This document shows positions 4,850 to 57,434 of a stretch of 64,000 nucleotides of DNA, in pieces. Source of the DNA: an uncultured virus (IMG/VR IMGVR_UViG_3300010283_000223) (lineage: Duplodnaviria; Heunggongvirae; Uroviricota; Caudoviricetes). Each line of letters begins with the position of its first letter. The stretch's first letter is position 1. A program made the position numbers and the translations under genes. The stretch lies in IMG/VR virus record IMGVR_UViG_3300010283_000223; one strand, 5' to 3'. Under the pieces are notes generated by a model. That model was not told the origin of the DNA. It was given only the letters and a program-made list of their open reading frames with translations, and made no database searches.

Positions 4850-4883
4850 ATAAACACGCTGCCCTATCGGCCATACGGGGAGA

Positions 4884-8077: not shown

Positions 8078-8464
8078 TTATAAATTTACATCTGTCATCA
8101 TAGCCAAGTATTCAAGATTGGCCGTATTCAAAGCTGCTATGGTGGTAAGTGTTGTGTTGTCTGCCGGATATGGATCTTCATTCTCCACAATTTTGCATGT
8201 TTCCCAGTCATATTTGTATCTCAACGGAACCACGCCTTCCGGAAGTTCATCAACCGCACTCTCCTTCGCAATATCATCATACGAAGGGCGGAACTGGGTG
8301 CCAATCTTGGGATATATCGTTTCATTATCTGAACCGATGTATCCCTGTGCATCATGCTGGTGGCACAGAACTACCAAGTTATTCTTATTCTTTTTTACAT
8401 AGCGCACTTCATCTACTATGTCAATGATCACATCAGACTTGTTAAGTAGCAAAAATTTGCTCAT
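8078..8464 (-). CDS. Hypothetical tail-associated protein
   Basis: C-terminal ANLEYLAMMTDVNL, typical of genes preceding XkdX. Confidence 0.7.
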   Translation of the reverse strand: MSKFLLLNKSDVIIDIVDEVRYVKKNKNNLVVLCHQHDAQGYIGSDNETIYPKIGTQFRPSYDDIAKESAVDELPEGVVPLRYKYDWETCKIVENEDPYPADNTTLTTIAALNTANLEYLAMMTDVNL

Positions 8465-9602
8465 CTCGCATTCCTCCTTGCATAAATTTTTCTATAAATA
8501 ATTGATTATAAAGATTGGCTAGACTCCTTTTTGTAAGATATCCATCCTTATGTGCTAAATAACCGGATATGGATGCGTAAAAGCTTCTAACTGCGTTGTA
8601 ATCCATCTCGCCATTTTCCACCTTGACCGCCATTTTCTTTAACTTCTTGCGGTACTGTGCTATTCTCTTATGAGAAGCTTTCCGTATAACTTTTCCCTTC
8701 TCTGTAAGGAAATATCTGTCTTGCAGCCAAGTAAAGCCATGTGAAAGCTTTATTTTCTGCGTTTTCTTCGGGTTCATCTCAATTCCAATTTCAGCATACA
8801 TTTGGGAAATATCTCTCAAAATCTTGTCAGCCTCTTCTTTCGTGTCCACTATCACATACCAATCATCCATATGTCTGCAGTAATATTTTTTCCGCAGCAC
8901 ATCTTTGATGTAATGATCAATCGCATTCGCATATGCTACAGCATTTATTTGGCATACCTGGGACCCTAAGCCAAGCCCTTTTCCAAATGGTGATATAAAA
9001 TCCATCGTCTGTCTTATGAGCTCTTGATCTGTAATCATCTTGCACATATTCTTATATATGACATCATGTCTGAGACTGGCAAAAAAATCATGTCCATCTC
9101 CCATAACAATGTATCCAGAATTTGTAAATCCAGATTTTCTGTAATGCCGACGCAAATCCTTTATCAACTGATCAGAACTAAATCCGGTACCCTTTCCTTC
9201 TTGGGAAGCTCCGTTCTCATAAATAAGAGATTTCTCCATAATCGGAACTATGCCATAATCGCAGACCGCCTTCTGCGGTACCCTTTCTGTAATATGTACC
9301 GAAGATATGTGCCTTATTTTTCCTCTTTCGTATAGGACGAATTCTATAAATCCTTTGCTTATCTTTTGATGTTTCCGCATTTTACGGCTAATGACGTATG
9401 AATTTCTAAGCACGTTGCATCCATATTTTTGTACAGAAGCTTTCCAGTTAGTTCCTCTCCTCGCTTTGTAAAATGACTTACGAAGGGATCCAAACTCTGT
9501 AACCTTCTGAAATGTATGATCAGCATTTCTGATAGCCTTTTTCTCTTCTCTTTTCGCTTTTCTTCTTTGGTAACGTGCTTCTCTTCTCTCTTCACTGTTC
9601 AT
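8442..9602 (-). CDS. DGR reverse transcriptase
   Basis: RT motifs GKIRHI..ERV, GKG, D..DFF.S, GLGLGSQVCQ, RHMDD, FTWL; no maturase/HNH domain; adjacent TR and avd. Confidence 0.95.
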   Translation of the reverse strand: MNSEERREARYQRRKAKREEKKAIRNADHTFQKVTEFGSLRKSFYKARRGTNWKASVQKYGCNVLRNSYVISRKMRKHQKISKGFIEFVLYERGKIRHISSVHITERVPQKAVCDYGIVPIMEKSLIYENGASQEGKGTGFSSDQLIKDLRRHYRKSGFTNSGYIVMGDGHDFFASLRHDVIYKNMCKMITDQELIRQTMDFISPFGKGLGLGSQVCQINAVAYANAIDHYIKDVLRKKYYCRHMDDWYVIVDTKEEADKILRDISQMYAEIGIEMNPKKTQKIKLSHGFTWLQDRYFLTEKGKVIRKASHKRIAQYRKKLKKMAVKVENGEMDYNAVRSFYASISGYLAHKDGYLTKRSLANLYNQLFIEKFMQGGMRDEQIFAT

Positions 9603-9839: not shown

Positions 9840-9968
9840 CAGGGGGCCACGCCATTCGAGTTGCTCGCGTTGTTGTTGTTGGCCGCACCCGCGGTAGTCA
9901 CATTGCAAAAGTTCGTACCGTTGCCGGAGTTCGGAGACGAAAGCCACCAGTTCGCTGAACCACCACCA
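9840..9968 (-). repeat. DGR template repeat (TR)
   Basis: 129 bp with 27 adenines and 11 AAY codons on the coding strand; differs from both VRs only at adenines. Confidence 0.97.
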
Positions 9969-10436: not shown

Positions 10437-10453
10437 GGCGGGACAAGCCCGCC
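10437..10453. other. DGR target-recognition hairpin 1
   Basis: GGCGGG-ACAAG-CCCGCC just downstream of the target 1 stop codon. Confidence 0.85.
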
Positions 10454-10459
10454 AGATGA

Positions 10460-11419
10460 TTATGATTCTGATGAAACGATTTGGAAGCAGGGGGCCACGC
10501 CATTCGAGTCGCTCGCGTTGTAGTTGCTGGCCGCACCCGCGGTAGTCACATAGCAAAAGTTCGTACCGTTGCCGGAGTTCGGAGACGAAAGCCACCAGAG
10601 CGCTGAACCACCAGATTTTCCATAGGTTTTTACCCTGTTTGATGCAACTGCATAAATCGGGAATTGTGCCGTATCAGACGTATGCTCCGTAGCTGTAGCA
10701 TATGTCTGCGTTCCAAATACCTCCCATTCTTTTGGTATCCAGATTTTATCTGTCGCCTCCTGCAGAGCACTTCCCTGATTACCGATTGAAGTCTTAAACG
10801 TTCTCTCTGAAATCACTGCTTTTAATTCATCCGGTAACGCCTGATAGAACACTCCATTCAGCCATTCTCTCATAGTACAAGCATTCCAACCGCCTACATT
10901 GGTGTTCGATGGATTCATCTGCCTTGCGGTCTCCATGCAATATCTAGGCTCAAAAATCAGCTGATGCGGCTGATCGTGGTTAATAGCTGCTATGCGGTAT
11001 GTCATTACTTCCTTAGTATTCAGAGCTACATTGATCTCATCACCAATATTGCAGTATGTAGTCTCCAAATGTGCATTGACAATATTTTTTAATCCGGTCC
11101 ATGTATTTGTATTGAGGCCTACCTCAATTTCTTTATATTCTCCTGCACTCAGGTGTACAATTGTTTCAAACTCTGTGACTCCAGCATTTGATACCGTTAC
11201 TTTGTATGCAGCTTTCCCAGCGAGATCAAATGTTGCCGTAAGGTTTGCGTTAAATTTTCCGGTAACTGCTGTAACACCATCAGTAACCACGATTGTTTTT
11301 CCTTCATCCTCTTCCACTGTAGATTTGCAAACCAACTTTGCATTTGTAAGTCCAACGAGAAGAACTTCAACGAGAGCGGCGCCTTCCGATGCGCCATAAT
11401 CAGCTTCCACAAAACTCAT
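10460..11419 (-). CDS. DGR target 1: tail-region protein with C-terminal C-lectin-fold (DUF6273-like) variable domain
   Basis: GGW...MREWLN, DKIWIP..WE, WWLSSP...GVAPCF; contains VR1. Confidence 0.9.
   Translation of the reverse strand: MSFVEADYGASEGAALVEVLLVGLTNAKLVCKSTVEEDEGKTIVVTDGVTAVTGKFNANLTATFDLAGKAAYKVTVSNAGVTEFETIVHLSAGEYKEIEVGLNTNTWTGLKNIVNAHLETTYCNIGDEINVALNTKEVMTYRIAAINHDQPHQLIFEPRYCMETARQMNPSNTNVGGWNACTMREWLNGVFYQALPDELKAVISERTFKTSIGNQGSALQEATDKIWIPKEWEVFGTQTYATATEHTSDTAQFPIYAVASNRVKTYGKSGGSALWWLSSPNSGNGTNFCYVTTAGAASNYNASDSNGVAPCFQIVSSES
10488..10613 (-). repeat. DGR variable repeat VR1
   Basis: 126 bp match to TR; 6 mismatches, all at TR adenines. Confidence 0.97.
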
Positions 11420-11421
11420 AA

Positions 11422-13331: not shown

Positions 13332-14776
13332 GTCGATAGACTCACCTCAATTCTGCTTGCATCCACATTTATAGCCTGCCTCTGATTTGCAGATATATTT
13401 CCTTCTATAAATTCAGTTGGCTTACTGCTTATATCACCTGAACTTGCCACATGAATTTTACAATAAGCAATACCGGCCAATACTTGATATATTCCGGCTA
13501 TAAATGTCTGTGACATCAAACTGTCTCCAATAGAGATTCCAGCTGCTTTCTCGCAGATGGTTTGCTGCACTACAGATACATAATCTGGATTGATGTTACT
13601 TCCATCTGTAGTAAGTTCGACCTTTATCCATGCGTATATAGGTTCCGGTCTTCGCAGTTTTATCGGTATTTCATCTCCATACTCACCGAGAACATTGACC
13701 ATAATATCGCCGCAAGTCTCAATCCCTCCGGATTTCTTTGTGAGAATTGCTTTGGCTATTGCTTCCTCATCTCCACCATCAACTATAACTTCAACGCAGT
13801 GCGGAGGCCTTCCAAGTTCGTCTTCTACATTGTATGGATTCTCGTAGCACCTCACATCTTTCACTCCAGCAACGTTTTCCAGAATATATGCTTCGATACT
13901 TTCTGTCATTGTTGATGATGTTCCATATGATTTTCTTATGTAATCCTGCCGGAAAGAAATATCACTTTGCTGAATTCTTCCAGGTGTTGGCTCTATTTTG
14001 TTGACCACAGATATCAGACCAGTTACATTTGATGCAATATCGCAAATAGTACCTTCCGGGCACTGAATATCTCCATAATCAACTGTGTAATAGTGTACTA
14101 GACTTACCACATATTCTGTAGTAAGATTGCTTGACAGCGACACATCATTACTGCGAGCTGCCACTGTATCCTCTATGGTAAGTGTCCCATTCTCTGTATC
14201 AGTTGCAACAGCATATCCAGCAACTTCTATTATTCCGGCCAATCCGTTAACTATGCTTTCCGCTGTCGGTGTTCCTGTGGCTTTATAACTATACATTTTG
14301 CCATTCAGCTCTACATTGTAAGTACCTTCAACGATTGTAACTGGCTTTATACATATTGCATTGCAGGACGATCTCGTAATCTCTGAATCCTTTGTACTTT
14401 TAAGCTGTACTACAGGATTTGTAATTGACGATATGAGGCTTCCTTTAGGAACAATCGTTCCATCCTTCGCAGTGCAATGTATTGTGTACTCGGTATGCTT
14501 ATTTCCTCGTCTGAATACGTTGCTATACTGGCATGCATTGTCAAGATTTACTCCTTCTGCTGTAGATGGGTATTTTGCATAATAACTCTCTTGTGCCACC
14601 TCCCACATTTCTGCTATTTTATCGCAAAACGGAATGATCAGGACAGAGTTGAGCAGTGATTGTGGATTCTGAGATACATCAAATCCAAGGGAACCGGAAA
14701 GATCTTCTTGTACTTCTTTGAGGATTGTGTCAAACCTTTTTAAAACAAACCCTTTATCCGTTACGCCATATTCCAT
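13328..14776 (-). CDS. Baseplate J-like protein
   Basis: YGVTDKGF, TAEGVNLD, GRPPHCVEVIVDGG. Confidence 0.85.
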   Translation of the reverse strand: MEYGVTDKGFVLKRFDTILKEVQEDLSGSLGFDVSQNPQSLLNSVLIIPFCDKIAEMWEVAQESYYAKYPSTAEGVNLDNACQYSNVFRRGNKHTEYTIHCTAKDGTIVPKGSLISSITNPVVQLKSTKDSEITRSSCNAICIKPVTIVEGTYNVELNGKMYSYKATGTPTAESIVNGLAGIIEVAGYAVATDTENGTLTIEDTVAARSNDVSLSSNLTTEYVVSLVHYYTVDYGDIQCPEGTICDIASNVTGLISVVNKIEPTPGRIQQSDISFRQDYIRKSYGTSSTMTESIEAYILENVAGVKDVRCYENPYNVEDELGRPPHCVEVIVDGGDEEAIAKAILTKKSGGIETCGDIMVNVLGEYGDEIPIKLRRPEPIYAWIKVELTTDGSNINPDYVSVVQQTICEKAAGISIGDSLMSQTFIAGIYQVLAGIAYCKIHVASSGDISSKPTEFIEGNISANQRQAINVDASRIEVSLST

Positions 14777-28379: not shown

Positions 28380-30593
28380 CTAATCTACATTTTCAACTTT
28401 GCTAAAAATATTATATTCACCAAATCCATGGCACTCAAATGCGTAATTATAAGCAATATCATCATCCGGGTTATAGGTTGTGATCATGCCGCTACGCTTA
28501 CCATTGTATTTGGCGTGATATATATTGTTTATATCGTGGCCAACTTTTTCAGCTTCTTTAACTGAAACATTTTTAGCCGTTTTTCTCTTGTATGATTTTC
28601 CGCTGCTGTCCTTTGGTGGTTCATCGTCATCCCCGCCGCCTTCAGGCTTTCTTCCAGATCCAGGACCACCATCAGCTTCTGCTTTAATATTACTCGAAGC
28701 AGAAGATTCCGTCAACATGCATTCGTGCAGCTGCCTCATCATTTCTTCTAAGCCAAGTCTGAACGGCAAAAACAATTCCCCCTCCAGAACTTCTCCTATC
28801 TCTGCGAATCTTGCATTTTCCATTTCATCATTAAATGAAATCGGCTCTCCATAGAACTCTGTACATAAGAATACTTGGGACGGGCAATACCCTTCAGGCA
28901 TTCCGGCAATCAATGCTACCGGTATAGTCTCTGCGATATTTATTCCAAATTCCTCTCTCGTTTCCCTGATTGCCGCCTCTTCTGGTGACTCTCCTGCTTC
29001 TATGTGCCCTCCGGGACCGCAAAGGAGTCCGCTGTCTTTACGATTTCCAACCAGAATCTTTCCATCTCGCATAACAATTACTCCACATCCGGTTGGTATG
29101 ATCTGCTGTGCGGGGAATACAGGTTGCTGCATATCAGAATCTGTATTTTCAGTCTCCCGAACTTCTATATCCGGTAGTTTCTGCTGTGCCGGTAATGCCG
29201 TGTCCACTGTTTCTTCAGATTCTCCAGTTTCAGTATCGTTCCATCCTTCCTCTGAAATAATATCATTGACCGTAAACTCTCCATCCTCAGAAAGTCTTTT
29301 TCGAACCTCTTCTGCATCGATTGCCTGCATGTCAACATATATTTGCGCTGTCTGTGCCTTTACAAACTCTGTATCTGCTTTTACCTTGTCTGTATCCGCC
29401 TGCTGTTTCTCGTCCATGTTCCACAAAGGTTTGAATTCCAAATTGTAATCCGGTATTTCATCGAATTTCTTTTTGTACTTTCCAACACTAAGGATAATGT
29501 CAATCACAGTTTTTATGTTTTTCTTCAGATTAAGTTCCTGGATATTCCCGATGAATCCATAATAATTTTCCATATCTCCCTCACCGGTAGAATTTTCTCC
29601 GGCAGGAGAACGTCCAAACAATTTCGTCTGCGGGATCCCCGTGACTGCGGACAACATATTGCAAGCTGCATCGACGATATCCTTTACTCCTGAAAAAGTA
29701 ACTGTCTCATAGTGATAATCTTCTCCATCTGCATCAATGGCTATAGAATTCAATATGCCCTTGGCCATATCTATGAGATTCAGCCTTTTTAGGATTTCTT
29801 CCTCGCCATCCTCTGTAAGAATCCGTTCCGCAAGTCCCTGCATTTTATATACGGCTTGTACCGCTCTATCGAGCAGCTTTGCACCATTCCCATGGGATGT
29901 AGTAGTAACCTGTAAGTCTCTGTGTATCCGCATATATTCAGGAATTCCGAAGTACCGATATTGCTGATATGATGAATACATAGGTATTATGTTATTCCTA
30001 AATATAAGACATCTCGATTCATGAACCCTAAAGGTGCCTCCATAAATCGGGGAGATATTATAATACTCCGGCATACCACATTTGCTTCTGCCACTTCTAC
30101 CATTTTTTACTCCGCTTGTTCTGTAAATGCTGTTATAGTCAGGAGTAACAAAGGGCAGTTCAAAAACCTGCAGTTCATCAATTCCCTGAATATTATCCCA
30201 ATCGACAGGATCGTCAAGCTCTCCTCCATCGTCAATAAACATCACCATTATGGAACCGCCGAACAGCCTAGCCCATTTAAGAGCTTCCGCAGCCTTCGCT
30301 TTGAAATCCAACTCATCCAGTGATTTATCAATAAAGGTCGTAATGTCCACATCGGATATGTTATAATTACACCCTCCCCTTACTGCATCATCTGCAGGAA
30401 TGTCTATAATCTTTGCGAACAATCCATTTTCTTCGTAGTTGATTTCCAAGTCTACATCTGATACGATTCCGTCTGACTCAAATGCATAATGTTCGGAGGC
30501 GTCATTCTTGGTGCCGTACTTGTTTAACAGGTTTTTGTACCCGTCACTTCGTATTTCTTTCTGATTTTCCTTAGTCTTTTCTTCGTTCTGCAT
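28380..30593 (-). CDS. Portal protein (DUF1073-like) fused to a Nudix hydrolase and a C-terminal extra domain
   Basis: Portal motifs WARLFGG, VHESR, IPQTKLFGRSPAG; perfect Nudix box GHIEAGESPEEAAIRETREEFGI at 29009-28941. Confidence 0.88.
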   Translation of the reverse strand: MQNEEKTKENQKEIRSDGYKNLLNKYGTKNDASEHYAFESDGIVSDVDLEINYEENGLFAKIIDIPADDAVRGGCNYNISDVDITTFIDKSLDELDFKAKAAEALKWARLFGGSIMVMFIDDGGELDDPVDWDNIQGIDELQVFELPFVTPDYNSIYRTSGVKNGRSGRSKCGMPEYYNISPIYGGTFRVHESRCLIFRNNIIPMYSSYQQYRYFGIPEYMRIHRDLQVTTTSHGNGAKLLDRAVQAVYKMQGLAERILTEDGEEEILKRLNLIDMAKGILNSIAIDADGEDYHYETVTFSGVKDIVDAACNMLSAVTGIPQTKLFGRSPAGENSTGEGDMENYYGFIGNIQELNLKKNIKTVIDIILSVGKYKKKFDEIPDYNLEFKPLWNMDEKQQADTDKVKADTEFVKAQTAQIYVDMQAIDAEEVRKRLSEDGEFTVNDIISEEGWNDTETGESEETVDTALPAQQKLPDIEVRETENTDSDMQQPVFPAQQIIPTGCGVIVMRDGKILVGNRKDSGLLCGPGGHIEAGESPEEAAIRETREEFGINIAETIPVALIAGMPEGYCPSQVFLCTEFYGEPISFNDEMENARFAEIGEVLEGELFLPFRLGLEEMMRQLHECMLTESSASSNIKAEADGGPGSGRKPEGGGDDDEPPKDSSGKSYKRKTAKNVSVKEAEKVGHDINNIYHAKYNGKRSGMITTYNPDDDIAYNYAFECHGFGEYNIFSKVENVD
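28687..28715 (-). promoter_or_regulatory. Internal sigma70-type promoter in the 3' part of the portal gene
   Basis: TTGACG-17 bp-TAATAT. Confidence 0.55.
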
Positions 30594-32991: not shown

Positions 32992-33510
32992 TTAAAACTT
33001 CGTTATATACTCGGCTTTTGAATAGTTTTCCCGACCTTTTACCATCATCTTCAAAAAATCCTCTTTTGAGAAGTCTGATAGCCTAAAAATCTCTTCAGGT
33101 TTCATGCCAAGTTGTTTTCCTATTTCCTCAATACTTTTACCTTCATTCATAAGGTCTTTTACAATAGCCTTCATCGGTTCCAGTAAGTGAGTACCACGTG
33201 CCCGATTATGCGTAACTGTTCCATACATATCCTCAGATTTTTCAGAATGCTCCACAATTACTACAGGTACCATACCTCCAAGCATGGTAATAAGTGGTTC
33301 CTGCCCAGCCACAGTCCAACGATGATATCCATCAATAATCGTATAGTCTGGGCGAACAACAATAGGTAGTGTCCATCCATTTGTAAGAATAGACTGCTTT
33401 AGCAACTCCAGGTTCTGCTTTGATACCTTATTGGGGTTCCAACTGTTTGCCCGGAGCTTATTTCTATCTACCCAATGCATGGTAGACAATGGTTTTTTCA
33501 AATCATTCAA
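32992..33510 (-). CDS. ParB/Srx-fold protein, IbrB-like
   Basis: N.WNPN, GWTLPIV, IIDGYHRW, THNRARGTH; likely TTG start at 33510. Confidence 0.85.
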   Translation of the reverse strand: MNDLKKPLSTMHWVDRNKLRANSWNPNKVSKQNLELLKQSILTNGWTLPIVVRPDYTIIDGYHRWTVAGQEPLITMLGGMVPVVIVEHSEKSEDMYGTVTHNRARGTHLLEPMKAIVKDLMNEGKSIEEIGKQLGMKPEEIFRLSDFSKEDFLKMMVKGRENYSKAEYITKF

Positions 33511-34651
33511 CCCGCTTCGCCTCCTCCCTTTTAGCCTCTGAAATGTATCGGCCATATATTCTCTGAAATAACGCTCGGTAGGTGCGCAGCTTTGGATCTC
33601 CTGATATGAGTCCCTCGTAAATAATTTTATAATCTTTTTCTGTTGCAATAGGGGCTACTCTTATGAAAAAGTTCCTGTATTTGGATGCAATCTGTCGCTT
33701 ATGCTCCGTAGTAAAATACACATCCATGTTATTGAACATCTTTATAAGCTCTGCCTTATAATCTTTTTTGTCGGAATCTGCTTCGATTGATCTTCTTGTC
33801 GCGGAGTTCCTTCCAAACATCTCGCTGTCCCAATAAAGGGCTGCGAGATATGCGTTTGGTTCCCTTCGAATTACCCTTTCCATCAGATCTGGGTAATACT
33901 CATTCATCTTTACAAGGCTTCTAGCTGTATCTATAGAAAAGAACTGTGATACTCTCAACTGTCCTTTCCTTGTTCCTGCTTGCCATAAATACAGATAAAT
34001 ATCCGGTATCTCCACATGTTCATTAAGAAGGTAAAGCCAGACATCATTATTGGTCCAATCATAGATCGGAAATATCTGGTGTTTTGCTGTCATGGTTTTT
34101 CCCGCTCTTGTCATTGTAGCGATATTCTGTAATCGCTGAACGGACTCTGCTGTCCTGATACCTGTCATTGTTATTCCACTCTGACAGGTCCTTGGAAGAA
34201 AGTCCTGGTACGTTTCCACCCTCGGCTTAAGTAGTTGGTGGCTTCTGATTGCAAATGAGGGAGGCTGTCTTACCCAGACATCTTCCTTTTCTCTGTCCCA
34301 ACATATGAATGATTCATCATTGGAAAGCTCATTAAAACAGTTGTAATGCCTGACTTCCAAACAATACCACTCAAATTTAGCCCCCATCAGAATAAATCGC
34401 TTTCTCCAGTTTTTCACTGTCTTTTCTATGCATGGGAATATTGCTTCCTCATCGATAAACTGCACGACCAACTGAGAGGGATTTACCTTTCCCCTCTGCA
34501 CAAGGTTGTACACAAGCTGAGCCATACACAAACTGTCCTTCCCGCCGGAAAAAGACATAAATACAGGAAGACCATTGTTAAAAACATTGGTGATCCGTAT
34601 CTCGGCTGCTTTTACAACATCAATGCTGGACTCTCGTCTTTTTACAGCCAT
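33503..34651 (-). CDS. PAPS-reductase-fold protein, IbrA-like
   Basis: SFSGGKDS PP-loop, FIDEE, GIRTAES..R, PIYDW...DVW. Confidence 0.85.
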   Translation of the reverse strand: MAVKRRESSIDVVKAAEIRITNVFNNGLPVFMSFSGGKDSLCMAQLVYNLVQRGKVNPSQLVVQFIDEEAIFPCIEKTVKNWRKRFILMGAKFEWYCLEVRHYNCFNELSNDESFICWDREKEDVWVRQPPSFAIRSHQLLKPRVETYQDFLPRTCQSGITMTGIRTAESVQRLQNIATMTRAGKTMTAKHQIFPIYDWTNNDVWLYLLNEHVEIPDIYLYLWQAGTRKGQLRVSQFFSIDTARSLVKMNEYYPDLMERVIRREPNAYLAALYWDSEMFGRNSATRRSIEADSDKKDYKAELIKMFNNMDVYFTTEHKRQIASKYRNFFIRVAPIATEKDYKIIYEGLISGDPKLRTYRALFQRIYGRYISEAKREEAKRVE

Positions 34652-35283
34652 ATTTTCTCACCGCATTTAGGACAGATGGCAAATTTCTTAACATCGGCGG
34701 CTTCGCCATCTTCCCCATTATCAGTATCCCCTGCAGATTGCAGAGGTACTTCTGATGCAGTGTATGCAACGCCGGTATTTGGATTTTCTTCTCCATGCTC
34801 CGGCAACGATGCCTTTTCATTTTTCTCCTTAATGGCTTTGATTTCTTCATCATCCAAAGTTCCATACGAAGAAAGTTTCTCTGTGATATCATCTGCTTCT
34901 GATACCATCTGCTTCAATATTTCGGAATCATATCCCGGAATATCTAAATCATCATGTAGATCCTCCAGGAATGAATTCAACGTATCAAGGTTTTCAATAC
35001 CTAGTGAGAAAATCTTGTTATCTGCTATCATAAGTTTCTTTTTCTGATTTTCCGTCAGGTCATAATATTGATAAACCTCTGCCTCTTCATACTCCAAACG
35101 AAGTAAAGTATCGTAAAGTCCGTTGCCGGCCAGAATAACGTTGTTCTCGTCAATGACAATCGGTCTTATCTGACCAAACATCTTTACACTTCTTTCAAAC
35201 TCACGGAGCTGCTGCTCTGTGTGAATCCGCACGTTCTTCTCCGGTTTGTGAAGTTCTGATAATCTTTTGGTTGTAATTTTCAT
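34642..35283 (-). CDS. ParB N-terminal domain protein with C-terminal Zn ribbon
   Basis: N.RIH, FGQIRPIV, ILAGNG, IADNK, CPKCG. Confidence 0.85.
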   Translation of the reverse strand: MKITTKRLSELHKPEKNVRIHTEQQLREFERSVKMFGQIRPIVIDENNVILAGNGLYDTLLRLEYEEAEVYQYYDLTENQKKKLMIADNKIFSLGIENLDTLNSFLEDLHDDLDIPGYDSEILKQMVSEADDITEKLSSYGTLDDEEIKAIKEKNEKASLPEHGEENPNTGVAYTASEVPLQSAGDTDNGEDGEAADVKKFAICPKCGEKIWL

Positions 35284-35329
35284 ATTTCCTCCATTTCTGA
35301 AGGACAATGACGTTTCCGGCTGCAACCGG

Positions 35330-36118
35330 TTATTTTATAGAATCAAAAAACCGCTTAGCACCTTCAAAGTGTTTTGCGGCCTCTTGCACAATACTTTTAT
35401 CTATTTCATATACTTCTTTCCATCCTTGTTCCTCTGTTTTCATATACTGTCGAGCCGGCCAAGGATGTGTACCACACAGATATCCTTTCTCCCATCCATA
35501 GATAGGCGGAACTGGAAGTTTGTAATAATGGATATAGGCAAGTATCTCTTCGTGGGTCCAATCTGCCAGTGGGCTGAATCTCGTAATTCCTCTGGTATTT
35601 GTATATGTATTGGATCCTCTTCCAACATAATTTCCATCTGCTCTTCTCCTTCCAAGCAGAATCATATCCAGATTGCATTCCCTGTAATACTTTTCCTGGG
35701 CTCTGTGCTGTACTATTTTAAACCATGTGGCCGCTGTCTTGGCATCCTTTGGGAAAAGCATTTCTGGATGTAATTTCAACCATTCAATATCCTGCCCTGT
35801 ATTAACAATAGTAAGACCCTCCGGTGCATTCTCCCTCGCCCATGCCTCAAATGCCGGATATTCCAGGTTGCATACGGCAAGCACGCATTTCTTGATGCCG
35901 GCTTTCTCGCAAATCTTGCCAAGCACAATACTGTCCTTTCCCGCACTCCATCCATAGGCAACGTTCTTACCAGCCGTCTTTTCTTTAATGTCTTTGACGG
36001 TTTGCCTCACTTTTGAATCCAAGGCTTTTTTTGATACAACCTTCTCAATATTTGCCACAGCTTCAACCCATGCATCATTTCTTATTCTCTGCTTTCTTCC
36101 CAAAGCTTCATTTCCCAT
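35330..36118 (-). CDS. Second PAPS-reductase-fold protein
   Basis: WSAGKDS, LGRRRADG, PLADW. Confidence 0.8.
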   Translation of the reverse strand: MGNEALGRKQRIRNDAWVEAVANIEKVVSKKALDSKVRQTVKDIKEKTAGKNVAYGWSAGKDSIVLGKICEKAGIKKCVLAVCNLEYPAFEAWARENAPEGLTIVNTGQDIEWLKLHPEMLFPKDAKTAATWFKIVQHRAQEKYYRECNLDMILLGRRRADGNYVGRGSNTYTNTRGITRFSPLADWTHEEILAYIHYYKLPVPPIYGWEKGYLCGTHPWPARQYMKTEEQGWKEVYEIDKSIVQEAAKHFEGAKRFFDSIK

Positions 36119-37505
36119 TTTGTATCACACCTCCTGTTTTTAAGGTATGTGATACAGCAATGGCGATTATTCCAGCCGAGAGCACAGTCAATAGGCTTCC
36201 CGCTGTTTTATATGCTGCAATGTTATAAATGTTGCCATAGGCGAAAATAGGAAGCCCTACAACCAACGCAAATACAATTCCTGTAGTAACTCCCTTCGCA
36301 GTCAACTTGACACCCTTTAATGTAAAGACCGTTGGAAGCATAGTTGCTGCTCTTAGCGTTCCATACATCAGAAACAGATGCGTCACCGTCAATCCCGGAA
36401 TGTTTGCAACTGCGATTCCCACAAGAAGTAAACAGATCATGGCTATTTTCCCAAAAGTTGAGGTTTTTTTCGTCTTAATGTCTGTCGTAAGAGATGCGAT
36501 GGCGCATAAATTACTGTCAATTGTTGACAAAAGCCCTGACACAACCATAAACAGAAATGGGACAACCGCCCAACTTGAAAACAATGTGCTTATTAGCTCA
36601 AAGTTAATTACTCCTGTATCGGTTGCAACGTATCCTGTTCCCGCTCCGATAAATCCAAGAATTCCCATAGACAGCGGAACAATACCGAATAGCAACGCTC
36701 CAACCAAAAAAGCCCTGCCTATATGATTTTTCTTTACGCAGAACGCCCTTTGCCAGAAACATTGATCACCAAACGGACCAGAAAGAAGTCCTACTGTTGT
36801 TGGAAGTCCAAAGCCAAGGAATATTTCCCATCCTCTTTCCGACACAAGTGAGAATCCATCACCATTGATTCCTCCCAGACCACTAGCCCAAGTATCCATG
36901 CCCCCTGCATTCCAGGTACCGAATACCACAAAACATACGCTTGTGATCAGCATAAATATCATTTGAATAGCGTCTGTAAGGATTGATGCCTTTATTCCGG
37001 AAAACTGAGAATATGAGAATGCTATGGCAGCCATTATAATTGTCATTAGCCAGAATGGAATTCCGGTAATCATACTCAATATCTTGCTTCCGGCCAAAAG
37101 TTGAACTCCTGTTGATAATGCAGATAACGCCCCCAGCTGGAACAGATAAATGTTCCTCACTGATTTGGATTTATACTTCGCATACATATATCCGGACAAT
37201 GTGATGCCATGTGGCATTTCTGCTCTTATTTTTCTTGCAAAAGGTATGAATAAGATCAGACATAAAACATTTGGGACCAAAAACCAGAAGAGCCCTGCAA
37301 AGCCCTTCGTGTAGGCATTCTCAGTTGACGTAAACAGTGCCGGCGCCCATATCCAGGTAGCTGCTATGCTCAATGCTGATACAAACCACCCTATGTTACG
37401 GTCTCCGACACAAAATCTTTCCATGTTTCTTTCTTTATTTGTCATTAGTATTGTTGCACCCACCATAATGAGTGCATAGATAATCAGAACAATTATCCCT
37501 GTCAT
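36108..37505 (-). CDS. Sodium:solute symporter family transporter
   Basis: About 12-13 TM segments; SIAATW, GIKASILTDAIQ, DQCFWQR, SGLLSTIDS. Confidence 0.88.
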   Translation of the reverse strand: MTGIIVLIIYALIMVGATILMTNKERNMERFCVGDRNIGWFVSALSIAATWIWAPALFTSTENAYTKGFAGLFWFLVPNVLCLILFIPFARKIRAEMPHGITLSGYMYAKYKSKSVRNIYLFQLGALSALSTGVQLLAGSKILSMITGIPFWLMTIIMAAIAFSYSQFSGIKASILTDAIQMIFMLITSVCFVVFGTWNAGGMDTWASGLGGINGDGFSLVSERGWEIFLGFGLPTTVGLLSGPFGDQCFWQRAFCVKKNHIGRAFLVGALLFGIVPLSMGILGFIGAGTGYVATDTGVINFELISTLFSSWAVVPFLFMVVSGLLSTIDSNLCAIASLTTDIKTKKTSTFGKIAMICLLLVGIAVANIPGLTVTHLFLMYGTLRAATMLPTVFTLKGVKLTAKGVTTGIVFALVVGLPIFAYGNIYNIAAYKTAGSLLTVLSAGIIAIAVSHTLKTGGVIQNGK

Positions 37506-43484: not shown

Positions 43485-43501
43485 GGCGGGACAAGCCCGC
43501 C
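43485..43501. other. DGR target-recognition hairpin 2
   Basis: GGCGGG-ACAAG-CCCGCC, identical to hairpin 1. Confidence 0.85.
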
Positions 43502-43507
43502 AGATGA

Positions 43508-44311
43508 TTATGATTTTGATGAAACGATTTGGAAGCAGGGGGCCACGCCATGCGAGCTGCTCGCGTAGCTGCTGATGGCCGCACCCGCGGTAGCCACATA
43601 GCAAAAGCCCGTACCGCTGCCGGAGTCCGGAGACGAAAGCCACCAGTGCGCCGAACCACCACCAAATCCATTCAACTTTACTCTGTGATGTCTGTCTCTG
43701 TAATAATTCAACTGCTCGTAGAGATTTTCTTCTCCAAAGCAATTATTTTTATCAAACACCTCTGATGCCGATGGAAGAAAAAGTTTAGTCCGATATATCT
43801 TCTCTTCATCGCCGTCCATATACTTCCGGTCTACAGTCGCAATCACTTCCTGTAGGTCACTCGGCAGCAAATTCCAAATATCATTATCCAAATACCCCTG
43901 CATTTCAGATAATGCAATTCCTCCGGCATTGGTCCATTCTTTATTCATCCTCTGTTCTGCATCCTTGATGCAATCCCTCGCTTCAAAACGGATGTAATCT
44001 TTCCCAATATCCGTAATGACCCATTCCTGTGGGTTTCCATTACGGAGTTTTGATGTTACTACATCTCCGATCTGGTACCGCACCTCGTTCCGGTTTAAAG
44101 CAGCCTTGATCATTTCCCAGGAAAATTCTTCCATTGTGGTTCTTGATATTGTGCATTCCCCGTCCTTCTTTTGTTTCATATTTTTTCTCAGTTTAATATT
44201 TTTATTTTTGATTCTTTCATAAAAAGCAATTCTTTCCCGCTCAATAATTTCCGGACTTCCTTCTATACGGAGTTCTTCCGAACCTACTCTTATTCTTAAT
44301 TTATTGTTCAT
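43508..44311 (-). CDS. DGR target 2: remote early-region protein with DUF6273-like variable domain
   Basis: KLFLPSASEV, WWLSSP...GVAPCFQIVSS; contains VR2. Confidence 0.92.
   Translation of the reverse strand: MNNKLRIRVGSEELRIEGSPEIIERERIAFYERIKNKNIKLRKNMKQKKDGECTISRTTMEEFSWEMIKAALNRNEVRYQIGDVVTSKLRNGNPQEWVITDIGKDYIRFEARDCIKDAEQRMNKEWTNAGGIALSEMQGYLDNDIWNLLPSDLQEVIATVDRKYMDGDEEKIYRTKLFLPSASEVFDKNNCFGEENLYEQLNYYRDRHHRVKLNGFGGGSAHWWLSSPDSGSGTGFCYVATAGAAISSYASSSHGVAPCFQIVSSKS
43536..43664 (-). repeat. DGR variable repeat VR2
   Basis: 129 bp match to TR; 14 mismatches, all at TR adenines. Confidence 0.97.
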
Positions 44312-44658: not shown

Positions 44659-45717
44659 CTATTCTGTAAAATTGACCGGAAGTACCAGTGCTGTCATATC
44701 GCTATCTTCGGCACGAATAATAGCAGGATGACGTTTGCTGGTAAAAGCTATTGAAATATTTTCACATTCAAAAGCTTTTACGCACTCCATAACCAGCGTT
44801 GGATCAAATGCTATTTTCAGACCATCCCCTACATCAATCTGCGTACTAATATCCTCTGTGTAGTCTGCTGTCTGGTTCTTATAAGTGATGTTTATGTTCT
44901 GTCCAGAAACATTGAGTAATACCGGTGCTTTATCCTCTTGTGCGCCACAGAGCTTCGCCCTGTTTATTGCATCCAGCAGGGCTTTTTTCTCCACCGCTGT
45001 CTGTATCTCTCCTTCAGTAAACAATGTCCGATAATTAACATAATTTCCTTCGATCAGTCTCGTATATATCTCATAGTCTTCTGTCCGAAATACCGCCCCG
45101 TATTTGTCATGGCTTATCGATACATTTTTCTGCATATCCAACTGCATGATCTTCTCAACTGCAGGTTTCGGAACAATCATTTCGAAGCTGCCATTCATAT
45201 CTAAACTATCCCATGCAATTCTGTGGCCATCTAATCCTACCAGGTTGAGCTTTCCGTCCTTGCATTCAAAGAACATTCCCTCCATCGTGCGATTTCCCAT
45301 ATTTTCAGAAATGGCATATGTTACATGGGAAATTGCTTTCTTTAACTCATCTGCAGGAATAACATCCTCCTGGCTTGTGTCTATATCGCTTCTTGCGTAT
45401 GCGAACTGTTCAACCGGTAAGGTTTTAAATTTATTCTTGATACTCCCCATTTGAATAGTAACCATGTCCCTGTCACAAGTGACCGATACATCTCCTGCCG
45501 GAAGATTTGTGATAAGGTCAAATGCCTTTGCCGGAATGATGAAATTATCTTCCTCTATGCCATCTAGCGTCGCCTTGACGGTCAGTTCAGTGTTGGATGC
45601 AATTAAATGACCATCCTGCACCAAAATTCCTTTTAAAGCGTCTATAGTGGTTTTCTTTGGTACGATTCCTTTCAACTGGCTTATTTTTCTAGCCAATTCA
45701 ACTTTCGATATCTTCAT
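44659..45717 (-). CDS. dnaN: Phage-encoded DNA polymerase III beta sliding clamp
   Basis: 352 aa; LDGHRIA, RLIEGNY, C-terminal LVLPV. Confidence 0.88.
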   Translation of the reverse strand: MKISKVELARKISQLKGIVPKKTTIDALKGILVQDGHLIASNTELTVKATLDGIEEDNFIIPAKAFDLITNLPAGDVSVTCDRDMVTIQMGSIKNKFKTLPVEQFAYARSDIDTSQEDVIPADELKKAISHVTYAISENMGNRTMEGMFFECKDGKLNLVGLDGHRIAWDSLDMNGSFEMIVPKPAVEKIMQLDMQKNVSISHDKYGAVFRTEDYEIYTRLIEGNYVNYRTLFTEGEIQTAVEKKALLDAINRAKLCGAQEDKAPVLLNVSGQNINITYKNQTADYTEDISTQIDVGDGLKIAFDPTLVMECVKAFECENISIAFTSKRHPAIIRAEDSDMTALVLPVNFTE

Positions 45718-46237
45718 GTAGCTCTACTCCTTCCAAAAACAGTATTTTGCAGTATTTCTGTATTACTTGATACGGTTTCAGCTCTTTCAATGTCATATGC
45801 TTATGACCAAACATTTCTTTCATAGACTTCCATACATTCCAAGGAACCCTGAAGAACTCACTCATTCCAATGGAAACTACAATATAGCAGTGAGCTCCCA
45901 TCTTTTCGTAACGATCAAACGTTTCCCATTGCTTGTCCGTTACTGCGCCCTGCTGAATCTTATCTGTATCTGTATGTTTTGCATCAAATACAATGCAACT
46001 TCCGTCACACAACACTCCTTTGAAATCAGGCTGCGCCTTTTTGGTAAAGCAGGCTATATATTGTCCCATTTTTCTATCACCATAAGGTTTTAAAGGCTTC
46101 ATTGGCTCTGGGGTTTTATCGATACATGCTGCTCCCTGTAAAAAATAGAATTCGCAGGAATCCTCTAGCCATTTTTCAAACATCTCTCCGGATTGTCTGC
46201 TTCTCCTTCCGATTAAACTTCTATTAGGATTTGTCAT
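45698..46237 (-). CDS. recU: Holliday junction resolvase RecU-like
   Basis: G..FE, KTPEP, PDFKG...FDAK.T. Confidence 0.8.
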   Translation of the reverse strand: MTNPNRSLIGRRSRQSGEMFEKWLEDSCEFYFLQGAACIDKTPEPMKPLKPYGDRKMGQYIACFTKKAQPDFKGVLCDGSCIVFDAKHTDTDKIQQGAVTDKQWETFDRYEKMGAHCYIVVSIGMSEFFRVPWNVWKSMKEMFGHKHMTLKELKPYQVIQKYCKILFLEGVELHEDIES

Positions 46238-46871
46238 TTTCTTCAACTCCTACTGTCTGAACGGATATCTCATAAGCTGTCCTGTACTCCGGTTCTCCAT
46301 TTTCGCTATGTTTCACATATTGTCTTGATTGGATGCGTCCCTTAATATCACATTTGGTTCCAACAGGAAGGTTCGCAACATATGTCGCATTTCTGCTCCA
46401 GCAGATGCAAGGTATGTAATCTGACTTACCATAAGATCTGTTCACCGCCAGAAGCAGATCCGCAATTTCTCTTCCAAGAGGTGTCTTTCGATAAATCGGT
46501 GTCTTGCAGATATGTCCTGAAATATATACTTCATTGATATCATCGTTGCCGCCTGTCTCCTCATCGGAAAAGTCGAGCATAATTTCTCTGGCAAATACAG
46601 ACAAATCCAATCTATTTTTGCTTTCTTCATGCTTGTTGTATGACCGGAACTGTCCTCTTATCAGGACTTTTCTGCCAACAAAATCCTCTTTCACATTTAT
46701 CAACCTTTCGGATACAGTAACCGGAATAGTATCGCATACGCCGCTAAGTCTTGGTATAGTAACACCAACTCTATAGAATCCTTCTCCGAACACCTCGTGG
46801 TTAAACGTAAATTTACTTGCAATATTTCCTAATATTGTTACCTGATTGTTATCGATATTGTTATTTTCCAT
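46224..46871 (-). CDS. ssb: Single-stranded DNA-binding protein (tandem OB folds)
   Basis: RKTPLGREIAD, SDYIPCICW, GRIQSR. Confidence 0.85.
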   Translation of the reverse strand: MENNNIDNNQVTILGNIASKFTFNHEVFGEGFYRVGVTIPRLSGVCDTIPVTVSERLINVKEDFVGRKVLIRGQFRSYNKHEESKNRLDLSVFAREIMLDFSDEETGGNDDINEVYISGHICKTPIYRKTPLGREIADLLLAVNRSYGKSDYIPCICWSRNATYVANLPVGTKCDIKGRIQSRQYVKHSENGEPEYRTAYEISVQTVGVEENDKS

Positions 46872-53582: not shown

Positions 53583-56500
53583 TTATTCATAGATAACCTT
53601 GGATCCATCCTCCGTCTTTATGACGTCCAGACTTTGAGGGAAACGTGCTTTCATGGTAGGATCATGTGTAATTGCCATGATCTTCAAATTCGGATACCGG
53701 TGCTGGATAGTCTCAAGGGCATCACAGTAGGCCTGTATTCCATCCGCATCAAGGAACGGCGGTTCATCAATAAAGAGCATTCCCATTTGTATTCCGGCTG
53801 AGGATGCCTTGATTTCAGCCAGCGCAAGAATGACCGACAGTGATGCTTTTACCTTTTCTCCTCCAGATTTTGACAGATAAGGAAGTGTTGATTTTCCATA
53901 CTCTTCAATCAGAATATCCAAGGTGACAACTTCCTTATTGGTATTGGACTTAATTGTTTTCTCGGTCTGGAATTCAATACCCATTTTCCCACCTGTCATT
54001 TGACCTAAAATACTGCTCGATACCTCTGTAAGCTTCGGCACCAATGACCGAATGATCTGGTGTGGGATTCCATCTTGAGAGAATGCTGATTTTAGCAAAT
54101 CATACTTGGCAATCTCTGCTGATACTCCGGATATGCTGGTCTGCAGTTCTGATACAGCCAGTTTTAATCTTTTGATTTCTTCAATCTTCTGATTCAGGCC
54201 GCCAAGCTCCTGCTGATGCGAATTCATGATGTCAGTGTGCTGTTTTATCTGAGAATTCATAGAATCTATCTGCATCTGCAGGGAGGTAATATCTAGTGTT
54301 GCTCCACCTGTCTTTTCGAGTTCTGCTTTTGCATCTTCCAGCTCTCTCAGGAGTTCTGTAAGTCGAATGGAGTAATCGGCTTTCTGCTGTTCTGCATTTG
54401 CCTTTCTTTCCCTCACAACCGGGTAAGTTCCGGCTAGGTCCACATATGCTTTAAGTCTGTTTATTTCTGCCAAAGTTTCTCTATGAGCAGTTACTGCATC
54501 CGTATACTCCGGAAGGATTTCTTCTATCTCCTGTGCCTTTATTTTGACCGTAGAAAGCCTTTTTTGCGCTTCAGCTATATTTGACTGTATATGCTCGATT
54601 GAAGCTTTTACGAGTTCAATCCTGCTTTCACGCTGGTTAAGCTCCTCAAGTTGATCAACATACGGACGGAGTTCTGCGATTCTAGCCTTAATCTTCACTA
54701 TATTTTCCGGTTCAAATCCAATGCCAAGCAGATCGGAGTCTAGTTTTTTCAAGTGGTCTTCAAGTGGTTTTACTTTTGCCTGATGGTCCTCTTCCAACTT
54801 TTTCAATATATCCGGATATTCATCTAATTTTTTCTTTGAGGTCAGAGCATCCGCAAGGAACCCACAATTTGCTTTCTCGATATCCACACATTGTACCGAA
54901 TCAAGAAGGTGTGCTTTTCTTCTATGATTCTCTTCATCCCTCTCAAGCCCTTTCTTAGTTGTCAAAAACAAATGCTGGAGTTCTGCTATTGAATTGCTAA
55001 CCTTCTGCTTTTCCAGTTCCTTTGCCCGGTAATCACGCTCTTTTTCATACTCAACGTTTAAGAGTTTATCCTGGCTCATATACTCTGCCGCATTTGTCCG
55101 GATCACATAGTCATTGGCATTGTCCTGCAAATCACTAAGTTCTCTGTTCTTTTGGTCAAGTTCTGCCTCATGCTTTGATATTGAGGCTGTTTCATCCGCA
55201 ATCTGCACTCTAAGTCGATTTAATTCATCTACCTTGCTCGCATGGACAGCGGCTTTCTCAGAAAGCTCTTTGTCCTTTTCTACAAGGGCATTGTATTTTT
55301 CCACTTTCTGTAATGTGTCCGGCTCGCTCTGCAGCGTAGTATCACAGGTCGTAATGGTGGACGAAAGAGCTGCTATGTTCGTCTGGCATTCACCGACCTT
55401 TGATTCCAGTGAGACTATGGAAGCCTGTACTTTCTTGCGGCGTTCCTCTGCTTCATTCTGCATGTTTAAAATGACCGATTTTTCATCACGCTCTTTCGTG
55501 AGTTCATTAACCCTGTCCTGATGAACCGATATGCTGCTTTCCACAATTGCCTTTTCAGCAAAAGGATCTCCGTAGCCATTTATTGTCTGTTCATGTATAT
55601 TGACCGTATTTTTTTTAGCTGCAATGTCTCTTCTAAGAATCGCAAGGTTATCCTTGACTAAATCTTCCATAACGCTATATATGCCAAGTCCGAGAAGATT
55701 TGAGAGGACTCCAACACGTTCCTCCTTGCCAGCTTCCAAAAATAATCCGTACTGGTCCTGCATAATCAGTACGCATGCCTTGAATGTGAGACTGTCCATT
55801 CCAAGAACTTTTTCAATCTCATTTTGCGTATCCTTATATTTTTCTTTTGAACGGTCTTCCCATTCTCCACTAATAAGCTGCGATAAATTAAGCGTTCCTT
55901 TTCCGGATTTTGCTCTTGTGCGCACTACACGGAATGTATTTTCTCCAAGTGAAAATGTAAAACTGATAGAACCAGATCTTGCCTTTTCATCACTTCGAAT
56001 CCATCCTGTGAGATCTCCTTCTCTTGGTTCTTCAAACAGACAGTCCATAATAGCATCCATGAACAGGCTGCTCTTTCCCGCTCCATTCTGTCCATTAATA
56101 GTGCAGAAGCGAATATCATCAAACGAAAAACTCTGCTCTACATAATTTCTGTAATTTTTTACAGAGATTTCCTTTGGGATAAATGTTCCGGTAAACTCCG
56201 ATACAGACTCATTTGCCCTCGCTTTTTCAATGATCGGGCGTGCAGCCTCCAGTATCTGTGTGATTTCCTCTGGCATTTTTCCTTTTTCCTGTAGATACTG
56301 GATAAGATTTGTTTCCGGATCATCAAATTTTGAAAGTTCCGTTCGGTTTACATCCTCTATGGAATCCAATTTTATGTCTGCTTTCCAAAAAGCTCCTGCA
56401 TCATACAGAGCCTTTTCAATCTGTGCGGTATTTATTGCTTTTTTCTGTTCTGCTGTGCAGCTGTAGATAATTCTGACAATCTTATCAGCAACGCCTTTCT

Positions 56501-57434
56501 GTGCGAAATAGATAGGTAATGATTCCGGATTATTGATTGCCTGTTCCACATCGTTCTTATCCCAATTTATTGTTAAAAATTCTCTATAAGGTGTTTTATG
56601 GAATTCTGAATCCGTAAATACCAAGCCTGTTTTTCCAAATGCGCCCTCTTCAAAGTGATGAATCCAGAATCCTCTCTCCTGTCCCTCATCATTAAAGTTG
56701 ATAGCATTCACAGCGCCGCTGTAGCATACATTATCAAGGCCATTTATAAACTGTGGTCTATGTATGTGGCCGAGAGCAACCAGATCATAATTAGCGGCTA
56801 TCAGCATTTCCTGCGTAATCACCGGTTCAACCTGTGAAAGAAACTGTACCTGTCCTGATTCCGTATTTGCCCCAGGCACTGTGTAGTGTGACATTAGAAT
56901 TGTCAATTTGCCGGGTTCGCAAAGCGATTTCATTCCAACCACAATATTTCCAAGTTCATCACTGAACACCATGTTTTCTTCATCCTTGGACAAACCGGGA
57001 AACTTTGCTCTGAATTTGCCTTTATCAAATCCAGGTACCACTACGATATCAGCGTATGTTGTGTTTATTATCTGCGGATCCGTTACAATATAAACATTAT
57101 TAACCAATTCAAAATGTGCCCTTAACTCATCAAAGGCATCTTCTGAGTCATGATTTGGTGTACCTCGCATAACAACGATTTTCCCGCAAGTCTTTGACAA
57201 TCTAAGTATGATATCTCTTGCCTGCAGTACCTCTTTGTGGCTCCTGCTCTGCCAAATCTCGGCCTGATGGAATATGTCTCCGGATACAAGGATGAGGTCT
57301 GGAAGTTCATTCTCTGCAACTCTTACCACTTCCTCAAGGCATTTCAGTGTATCCATGGATCTAAGGTTTACCCCGTCCTGTTCCGGTCCCTTAAAGGAAC
57401 CGATATGCCAATCTGCTGTATGTAATATTTTCAT
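53583..57434 (-). CDS. SbcD(Mre11)-SbcC(Rad50) fusion nuclease-ATPase
   Basis: ADWH, GD, NHD, GHIH phosphoesterase motifs; GQNGAGKS, Q-loop, coiled coil, KSGGE, LFIDE, ITHD. Confidence 0.9.
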   Translation of the reverse strand: MKILHTADWHIGSFKGPEQDGVNLRSMDTLKCLEEVVRVAENELPDLILVSGDIFHQAEIWQSRSHKEVLQARDIILRLSKTCGKIVVMRGTPNHDSEDAFDELRAHFELVNNVYIVTDPQIINTTYADIVVVPGFDKGKFRAKFPGLSKDEENMVFSDELGNIVVGMKSLCEPGKLTILMSHYTVPGANTESGQVQFLSQVEPVITQEMLIAANYDLVALGHIHRPQFINGLDNVCYSGAVNAINFNDEGQERGFWIHHFEEGAFGKTGLVFTDSEFHKTPYREFLTINWDKNDVEQAINNPESLPIYFAQKGVADKIVRIIYSCTAEQKKAINTAQIEKALYDAGAFWKADIKLDSIEDVNRTELSKFDDPETNLIQYLQEKGKMPEEITQILEAARPIIEKARANESVSEFTGTFIPKEISVKNYRNYVEQSFSFDDIRFCTINGQNGAGKSSLFMDAIMDCLFEEPREGDLTGWIRSDEKARSGSISFTFSLGENTFRVVRTRAKSGKGTLNLSQLISGEWEDRSKEKYKDTQNEIEKVLGMDSLTFKACVLIMQDQYGLFLEAGKEERVGVLSNLLGLGIYSVMEDLVKDNLAILRRDIAAKKNTVNIHEQTINGYGDPFAEKAIVESSISVHQDRVNELTKERDEKSVILNMQNEAEERRKKVQASIVSLESKVGECQTNIAALSSTITTCDTTLQSEPDTLQKVEKYNALVEKDKELSEKAAVHASKVDELNRLRVQIADETASISKHEAELDQKNRELSDLQDNANDYVIRTNAAEYMSQDKLLNVEYEKERDYRAKELEKQKVSNSIAELQHLFLTTKKGLERDEENHRRKAHLLDSVQCVDIEKANCGFLADALTSKKKLDEYPDILKKLEEDHQAKVKPLEDHLKKLDSDLLGIGFEPENIVKIKARIAELRPYVDQLEELNQRESRIELVKASIEHIQSNIAEAQKRLSTVKIKAQEIEEILPEYTDAVTAHRETLAEINRLKAYVDLAGTYPVVRERKANAEQQKADYSIRLTELLRELEDAKAELEKTGGATLDITSLQMQIDSMNSQIKQHTDIMNSHQQELGGLNQKIEEIKRLKLAVSELQTSISGVSAEIAKYDLLKSAFSQDGIPHQIIRSLVPKLTEVSSSILGQMTGGKMGIEFQTEKTIKSNTNKEVVTLDILIEEYGKSTLPYLSKSGGEKVKASLSVILALAEIKASSAGIQMGMLFIDEPPFLDADGIQAYCDALETIQHRYPNLKIMAITHDPTMKARFPQSLDVIKTEDGSKVIYE

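Follow-up and report, generated by a model that had tools for sequence, protein, structure and literature searches.

Closest Described Systems

In established DGR work, cDNA made by the reverse transcriptase (RT) and the accessory protein Avd homes to sites that carry an IMH and a hairpin, and it can act in trans. Bordetella BPP-1 combines RT, Avd, a template repeat (TR), a VR, an IMH, and a GC-rich inverted repeat with adenine mutagenesis of a C-type-lectin tip (PMC5758913); its Mtd is a single adjacent virion target with beta-prism and beta-sandwich domains. Non-adjacent targets are reported for 45 of 372 DGRs, whereby the phage-associated ones lie nearly all within 50 kb (PMC5758913). Four double-VR prophages have distal, apparently non-structural C-type-lectin targets (PMC12629997), and a role of distal targets in phage-host conflict was proposed in 2021 (PMC8008677) and also in PMC12629997. 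Small DUF6273 proteins have been described as second targets in Lelie and CP11 (PMC11792537), in nd4/nd12 (tgt2; PMC10743442), and in Toutatis (10.1101/2024.10.15.618418), and such targets were read as receptor-binding proteins (PMC10743442; 10.1101/2024.10.15.618418). For Roseburia phage Shimadzu, orf43 is reported as VR2, 2% of the virion reads at the VRs bear DGR-type changes, and VR1 and VR2 were both mutated in all five isolates (10.1101/575076). Virion proteomics or knockouts of distal DGR targets were not found in our literature search, which covered few of the subscription journals.

The DNA analyzed here comprises 64,000 nucleotides from an uncultured virus of the Caudoviricetes (IMGVR_UViG_3300010283_000223) and is called the window in the following. 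Its DGR has the same components and the same adenine mutagenesis of a lectin tip as BPP-1, but besides a tail-module target (target 1) it has a second one (target 2), which is remote, belongs to the DUF6273 subtype, and lacks both Mtd domains. The best phage-record match of target 2 is Shimadzu orf43 (LR596903) with 38% identity. Like the window phage, Shimadzu is a myovirus with the order tail target-avd-TR-RT, and its early replication genes include a stand-alone DUF6273 gene with VR2, in which 15 of 15 mismatches to the TR are at adenines. It differs in its TR sequence and in the position of VR2, which is about 14 kb from the TR as compared to 33 kb in the window. Furthermore, orf43 has 209 aa without the N-terminal module of target 2 and sits directly beside methyltransferase genes, between a DNA methyltransferase and Erf, and the activity of Shimadzu VR2 is seen in reads, whereas that of the window VR2 is seen across strains only.

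The layout is repeated in Dulem virus 34, where 15 of 16 VR2 mismatches are at adenines. Gp24 of Faecalibacterium phage FP_Toutatis is likewise a small DUF6273 protein encoded among early genes; one TR serves both gp24 and a structural target, and 13 of the 14 mismatches are at adenines. It is, however, a distant DUF6273 protein whose body could not be aligned to the target-2 profile. Gp24 is core in its genus (98.8%, 10.1101/2024.10.15.618418), whereas target 2 is accessory, and the partner target in the Toutatis group is a Hoc-like/tentaclin protein, with the authors favoring receptor binding. Quimbyvirus ORF 84/80 resembles target 2 by its description as a distal, apparently non-structural C-type-lectin DGR target (PMC8008677), but Quimbyvirus is Bacteroidetes-associated and its target lies within 7 kb of four methyltransferases. 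The novelty implied by the earlier note on this DNA thus does not hold, since the same layout with a homologous protein (10.1101/575076) and the conflict hypothesis (PMC8008677) are both in print. The locus adds a member to a known dual-target layout and not a principle. Nevertheless, it sharpens the question of what distal phage DGR targets do, owing to the accessory status, the frozen alleles, the separate lineage, and the fusions reported below.

One Template Repeat and Two Targets

The window holds a gut-type phage. It contains tail sheath, baseplate, capsid, and terminase genes as well as a divergent pair of HTH regulators, from which we infer a temperate myovirus. Its host probably belongs to the Lachnospiraceae, as suggested by the closest named genome of the same layout, which is a Lachnospiraceae MAG. 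The DGR cassette, in the order target 1, avd, TR, RT, and the variable part of target 2 comprise the following features:

8442..9602, minus strand: DGR reverse transcriptase, 386 aa, intact (RVT_1 E=2e-12; phrog_1423 E=2e-60; LGSQ and HMDD motifs)
9840..9968, minus strand: TR between avd and RT, with 27 adenines, mainly in AAC/AAT codons
10005..10418, minus strand: Avd accessory protein (phrog_3206 E=3.3e-8)
10437..10487, minus strand: IMH-like 3' block of VR1 with a GC-rich hairpin at 10437-10453 (-9.8 kcal/mol, z -5.1)
10460..11419, minus strand: target 1, a 319-aa DUF6273 protein at the end of the tail module, after baseplate and tail-collar genes (PF19789 E=8.5e-22)
10488..10613, minus strand: VR1, 6/6 mismatches at TR adenines (126 bp)
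43485..43535, minus strand: IMH-like 3' block of VR2 with a GC-rich hairpin at 43485-43501 (-9.7 kcal/mol, z -3.6)
43536..43664, minus strand: VR2, 14/14 mismatches to TR at adenines, 15/15 orthologue VRs distinct

RT, Avd, adenine-only VRs, IMH/hairpin, and lectin fold, which are features of a DGR, were found here. A Pfam scan of Avd gave no match. The Avd-TR-RT cassette is intact, and the position of target 1 suggests that it is a tail protein.

As the earlier note had stated, VR2 matches the TR (9840-9968) over 129 bp, and each of the 14 mismatches falls on a TR adenine. The alignment is ungapped, and 27 TR adenines are available in it. The probability of such an adenine-only pattern by chance is 1e-11. 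A chance repeat was rejected as the origin of the match. TR and VR2 are 33,567 bp apart. When TR adenines were ignored, a scan of the window returned three copies at 99 of 99 positions, and the next best place reached 42. The 51-nt 3' blocks following VR1 and VR2 are identical at 50 of 51 positions and are the only two copies in the window; the block is absent after the TR, where the downstream sequence folds no better than shuffles (z -1.0). Both features agree with what PMC5758913 reports as the IMH and inverted repeat of DGR targets.

It had also been claimed that VR1 and VR2 were mutagenised separately, their mismatches being mostly different. This last detail needs a correction: three of the six VR1 positions are changed in VR2 as well, two of them to the same base, and 11 of the 14 VR2 changes are unique to VR2. 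Together with the variation across strains given in the next section, the claim that a single TR serves two targets and that VR2 is independently and actively diversified could be upheld. By analogy to the BPP-1 model, the RT/Avd complex would make errors at adenines when copying TR RNA, and the resulting cDNA would replace any site in which a TR-like repeat is followed by the IMH-plus-hairpin signal. Two genes carry this signal, target 1 in the tail module and target 2 at a distance of 33 kb.

The 3' end of the window target 2 (43485-43535) is nearly identical to that of target 1, whereas target 2 of the diverged prophage G004:C82 and of the frozen clusters described below ends differently (compare the region at L005:3846). 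This suggests that the homing signal of target 2 may have been re-acquired from target 1 in the window lineage.

In the relative L002, the TR, which forms a pair with VR1 (10681-10806 / 11328-11453), differs from the window TR at three sites. The L002 VR1 differs from its own TR at 12 sites, all 12 at adenines, so VR1 follows the TR changes.

Variation of VR2 Across Strains

At 90%, the target 2 cluster comprises 44 members. Fifteen of these were listed; the frameshifted P0190 (239 aa) was dropped and the window protein was added. Among these 15 near-identical orthologues all 15 VRs are different. At TR-adenine codons, the sequences differ pairwise by 0.62, as compared to 0.022 in the body, and all residue changes from the TR (139 of 139) are reachable by adenine-only substitution. 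The corresponding values were obtained for target 1 (15 of 15 VRs distinct, 0.61 vs 0.016, 125 of 125 changes adenine-reachable), for which 15 of the 1032 cluster members were listed. The earlier note had held that target 2 carries more substitutions than the tail target. Across strains, this was not seen, with means of 9.3 and 8.3 changed codons, respectively (p=0.17), and the contrast of 14 to 6 holds for this window only. VR1 and VR2 have similar residue spectra, which thus give no sign of a different class of ligand.

In the diverged prophage G004:C82, both targets are present, also about 33 kb apart, and 15 of the 16 sites at which VR2 differs from its own TR are adenines. Between the TRs of G004 and the window there are 18 differences at non-adenine sites, and at all 18 of these each of the four VRs agrees with its own TR. 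A caveat is that metagenome assembly can stitch VR1 onto target 2. Nine of the 14 full-length members of the target 2 cluster end like target 1 (SSES); the six sequences with the target-2-specific ending, window included, all differ in their VRs. Contigs from four sequencing runs show further VR alleles, break in the VR, and mix TR, VR1, and VR2; since these runs were available as assembled contigs, the variation seen is between contigs and not between reads. Taken across strains, the sequences indicate that VR2 is an active DGR target.

The contigs of three runs depart from the window sequence at 43238, just downstream of target 2, so that the genes further downstream vary between strains.

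Fold and Ancestry of Target 2

Target 2 is encoded as follows:

43508..44311, minus strand: target 2, a 267-aa stand-alone DUF6273 protein (C-type-lectin fold) with the VR at the C-terminus (PF19789 E=1e-17; model pLDDT 91.5)
44177..44311, minus strand: optional N-terminal beta-hairpin and helix module, residues 1-45 (secondary structure in the model)

The predicted structure (100 sequences, pLDDT 91.5) consists of a hairpin-helix, a linker, and a globular domain of C-type-lectin fold, in agreement with the lectin-like C-terminus proposed before. It replaced an earlier model from 28 sequences, in which the VR was disordered and no PDB match at E<=0.001 was obtained. The best fold match is 9qa6 (Z 17.0, rmsd 2.7, 174 aligned residues), namely the N-terminal region of the Thomasclavelia IgA peptidase. 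That region is reported to be DUF6273 and dispensable for catalytic efficiency (PMC12402451). Further matches are Lcl (Z 8.7), the DGR target TvpA (Z 7.6, rmsd 4.3, 135 aligned), and then C-type lectins; tail and decoration proteins are also among the structural neighbors. A fold by itself does not reveal a ligand. A homotrimer prediction scored 0.19 against a mark of 0.42 and was set aside. Many orthologues are the bare domain of 215-219 aa and lack the N-terminal module; a search of the Atlas with this module gave no usable match. A tentaclin was rejected, as it does not agree with a C-terminal domain and VR without an Ig domain. Mtd-like virion receptor-binding proteins are encoded in the tail module and have N-terminal attachment domains, whereas target 2 is encoded in the early module and its N-terminus is an optional hairpin-helix.

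As had been claimed, the lectin-fold domain is all that targets 1 and 2 have in common, and both match DUF6273. The body of target 2 is 36% identical to Shimadzu orf43 and 25% to its own target 1. A tree of 28 rows was calculated with the VR removed; Toutatis gp24, with a body that could not be aligned, was not included. Target 2, its G004 counterpart, orf43, and nine unplaced proteins fall into a single starred clade (98/99), from which the tail targets are separate, whereas target 2 of Dulem virus 34 gains no firm place. The grouping of target 2 with its own target 1 was rejected (p-AU 0.0003), and so was a recent duplication of target 1 as the source of target 2. For the members of the starred clade, the tree therefore suggests common descent outside the VR. 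Target 2 would then descend from an old lineage of DUF6273 lectin-fold genes that are stand-alone, reside among early genes, and have their tips overwritten by the resident TR. The dN/dS of the body is 0.12-0.28 in four of five comparisons, the fifth being saturated, and the body is thus under purifying selection.

A single-protein scan of viral contigs returned no relative of target 2. In the giant proteins P0033, P0034, P0037, and P0040 (2180-3973 aa), the target-2 profile has 7-12 matches each.

Gene Context, Presence, and Frozen Alleles

As had been noted before, the gene of target 2 belongs to the early replication module and follows recU and dnaN. A Zn-ribbon gene also precedes it, and the replication genes of this run are all on one strand and mostly overlap:

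44659..45717, minus strand: dnaN (beta clamp), upstream of target 2 (PF00712/PF02767/PF02768)
45698..46246, minus strand: recU, upstream of target 2 (PF03838)

The promoter scan gave fewer sites than in shuffles (9 vs 15.5) and no terminator after target 2, so the early timing is deduced from gene order. In the window, L005, L009, Shimadzu, Dulem 34, and Toutatis alike, the small target is found in the early module. L005 and L009 keep the order dnaN-Zn ribbon-target 2 and have an intact hairpin of different sequence. The nearest methyltransferase in the window is 7 kb away from target 2.

In the relative G003, the sequence to either side of the site has 92-94% identity with the window and the cassette is intact, but other small genes replace target 2. 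Target 2 is thus an accessory gene. G001/G002 (39 kb, 63% complete) gave no match to target 2 but was set aside, as the stretches examined reach window position 33272 and it was taken to end before the site. In two of the four target-2 clusters examined, the VRs are almost constant, and these clusters persist. In one such case, the frozen-VR orthologue of L007 (matching P0207, on 89 contigs), the hairpin is broken (-1.5 vs -9.7 kcal/mol). This orthologue is 73% identical to target 2 and lies three genes after a DarB-like anti-restriction pair; none of the 11 neighboring ORFs that were scanned matches a virion family.

An unrelated DGR is present at L007:12427-17011, with a MutS_I-like gene, Avd, TR (13460-13602), and RT. 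Its VR (19 of 19 at adenines) is internal to a protein of 675 aa whose N-terminus is signal-like, and this DGR is also near the DarB-like pair.

Putative Role of Target 2

We lean slightly toward the reading that target 2 is a soluble protein that is expressed along with the replication genes, remains in the cytoplasm, and uses its variable surface to bind a variable protein of the host or of a rival element. A cytoplasmic binder is favored by the accessory status, the purifying selection, and the fusions of relatives to cytoplasmic domains. In a Pfam scan of 59 relatives, three had a second domain above the cut-off, namely AbrB/MazE, dATP/dGTP diphosphohydrolase-N, and DUF6378 (one each); no tail, Ig, or membrane family was found as a second domain. 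AbrB/MazE and dATP/dGTP diphosphohydrolase-N domains are cytoplasmic. The target 2 sequence contains no hydrophobic or signal-like stretch. The intracellular location asserted in the earlier note thus gains indirect support from the lack of such a stretch, the cytoplasmic-type fusions, and the DarB-side orthologue without virion genes among its scanned neighbors. Counter-defence would be the likeliest use of such a putative binder; a search of the PADLOC defence library gave no match for target 2. Against a cytoplasmic binder stand the absence of the gene from G003, the persistence of two frozen clusters, the similar residue spectra of VR1 and VR2, the recognised second domain in only three of 59 relatives, the distance of 7 kb to the methyltransferase, and the receptor-binding role that two papers assign to small DUF6273 targets (PMC10743442; 10.1101/2024.10.15.618418). 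A strong adaptive role is further opposed by the finding that, in mice, selection on the Shimadzu VR2 alleles was weaker than on VR1 (10.1101/575076).

A more far-reaching proposal, which we regard as tentative and rather doubtful, is that the whole target-2 clade consists of antibody-like intracellular binders that are made early, have a lectin-fold scaffold randomised by the template that also serves the tail protein, and are selected to bind and neutralise variable host defence proteins or to deliver small fused modules to them. Gain and loss of the IMH/hairpin would then decide whether the gene evolves or is frozen. Among natural relatives there are ones that have target 2, ones that lack it, and ones in which it is frozen, and many VR2 alleles occur on a near-constant body. 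If it is true that such proteins have host defence factors as their ligands, adaptive counter-defence would be open to phages through DGRs, in addition to host-range switching.

Several other explanations have to be weighed. It might be, with a minor but appreciable probability, that target 2 is a functional yet weakly selected accessory that is hypermutated mainly via its homing signal, so that most VR2 diversity is drift. This would agree with the weaker VR2 selection in vivo in Shimadzu (10.1101/575076), with the persisting frozen orthologue clusters, including one sequence on 89 contigs with a broken hairpin, with the absence from G003, and with the alike residue spectra. However, separate lineages whose IMH and hairpin sequences differ have kept the homing signal intact, dual targeting that includes an early gene is found repeatedly in phages whose TRs are dissimilar, and the body is under purifying selection.

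We consider it improbable that target 2 is a second virion adhesin, made in early or mid infection and loaded on the tail or head. Such a role has been proposed in print for nd4/nd12 tgt2 (PMC10743442) and Toutatis gp24 (10.1101/2024.10.15.618418), and it would fit the fold and TR-encoded surface shared with the tail target as well as the tail and decoration proteins among the structural neighbors. But none of the six inspected contexts (window, L005, L009, Shimadzu, Dulem 34, and Toutatis) is in a structural module, the N-terminal part of target 1 is missing and many orthologues are a bare domain of 215-219 aa, the fusions in relatives are of cytoplasmic type, and the L007 orthologue lies amid scanned ORFs without a virion-family match.

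Still less probable is a soluble receptor decoy or exclusion factor whose surface ligand is of the class that the tail protein recognizes, and which masks receptors after lysis or blocks their export. Target 2 is soluble and has no anchor, and scaffold, TR, and residue spectra are common to both targets; yet VR1 and VR2 differ within the window, G004, Shimadzu, Dulem, and Toutatis, which makes a matched specificity unlikely, and target 2 has no export signal. A relic, or a chimera that assembly has made from TR, VR1, and target 2, is very hard to sustain as an explanation of VR2, for although three near-identical repeats break short-read assemblies, P0190 looks chimeric, and nine of 14 full-length members end like target 1, all six sequences with the target-2-specific ending differ in the VR, the VRs track their own TR at 18 of 18 sites in two lineages, IMH/hairpin, RT, and Avd are intact, and read-level activity is published for the Shimadzu homologue (10.1101/575076).

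Further Observations in the Window

Apart from the DGR, several gene arrangements were recorded. The portal protein is fused to a NUDIX domain (28380-30593, minus strand; PF06381 and PF00293). Just before the terminase, the region 32992-37505 (minus strand) contains two ParB-like genes, two PAPS-reductase-domain genes, and a sodium:solute symporter; this cluster is mostly kept in G004 and is possibly a DNA-modification module. An SbcD-like nuclease is fused to an SbcC-like SMC ATPase in a protein of 1283 aa (53583-57434, minus strand). After the endolysin, an amidoligase and a gamma-glutamyl cyclotransferase are encoded as a pair on the opposite strand (3926-5339, plus strand).
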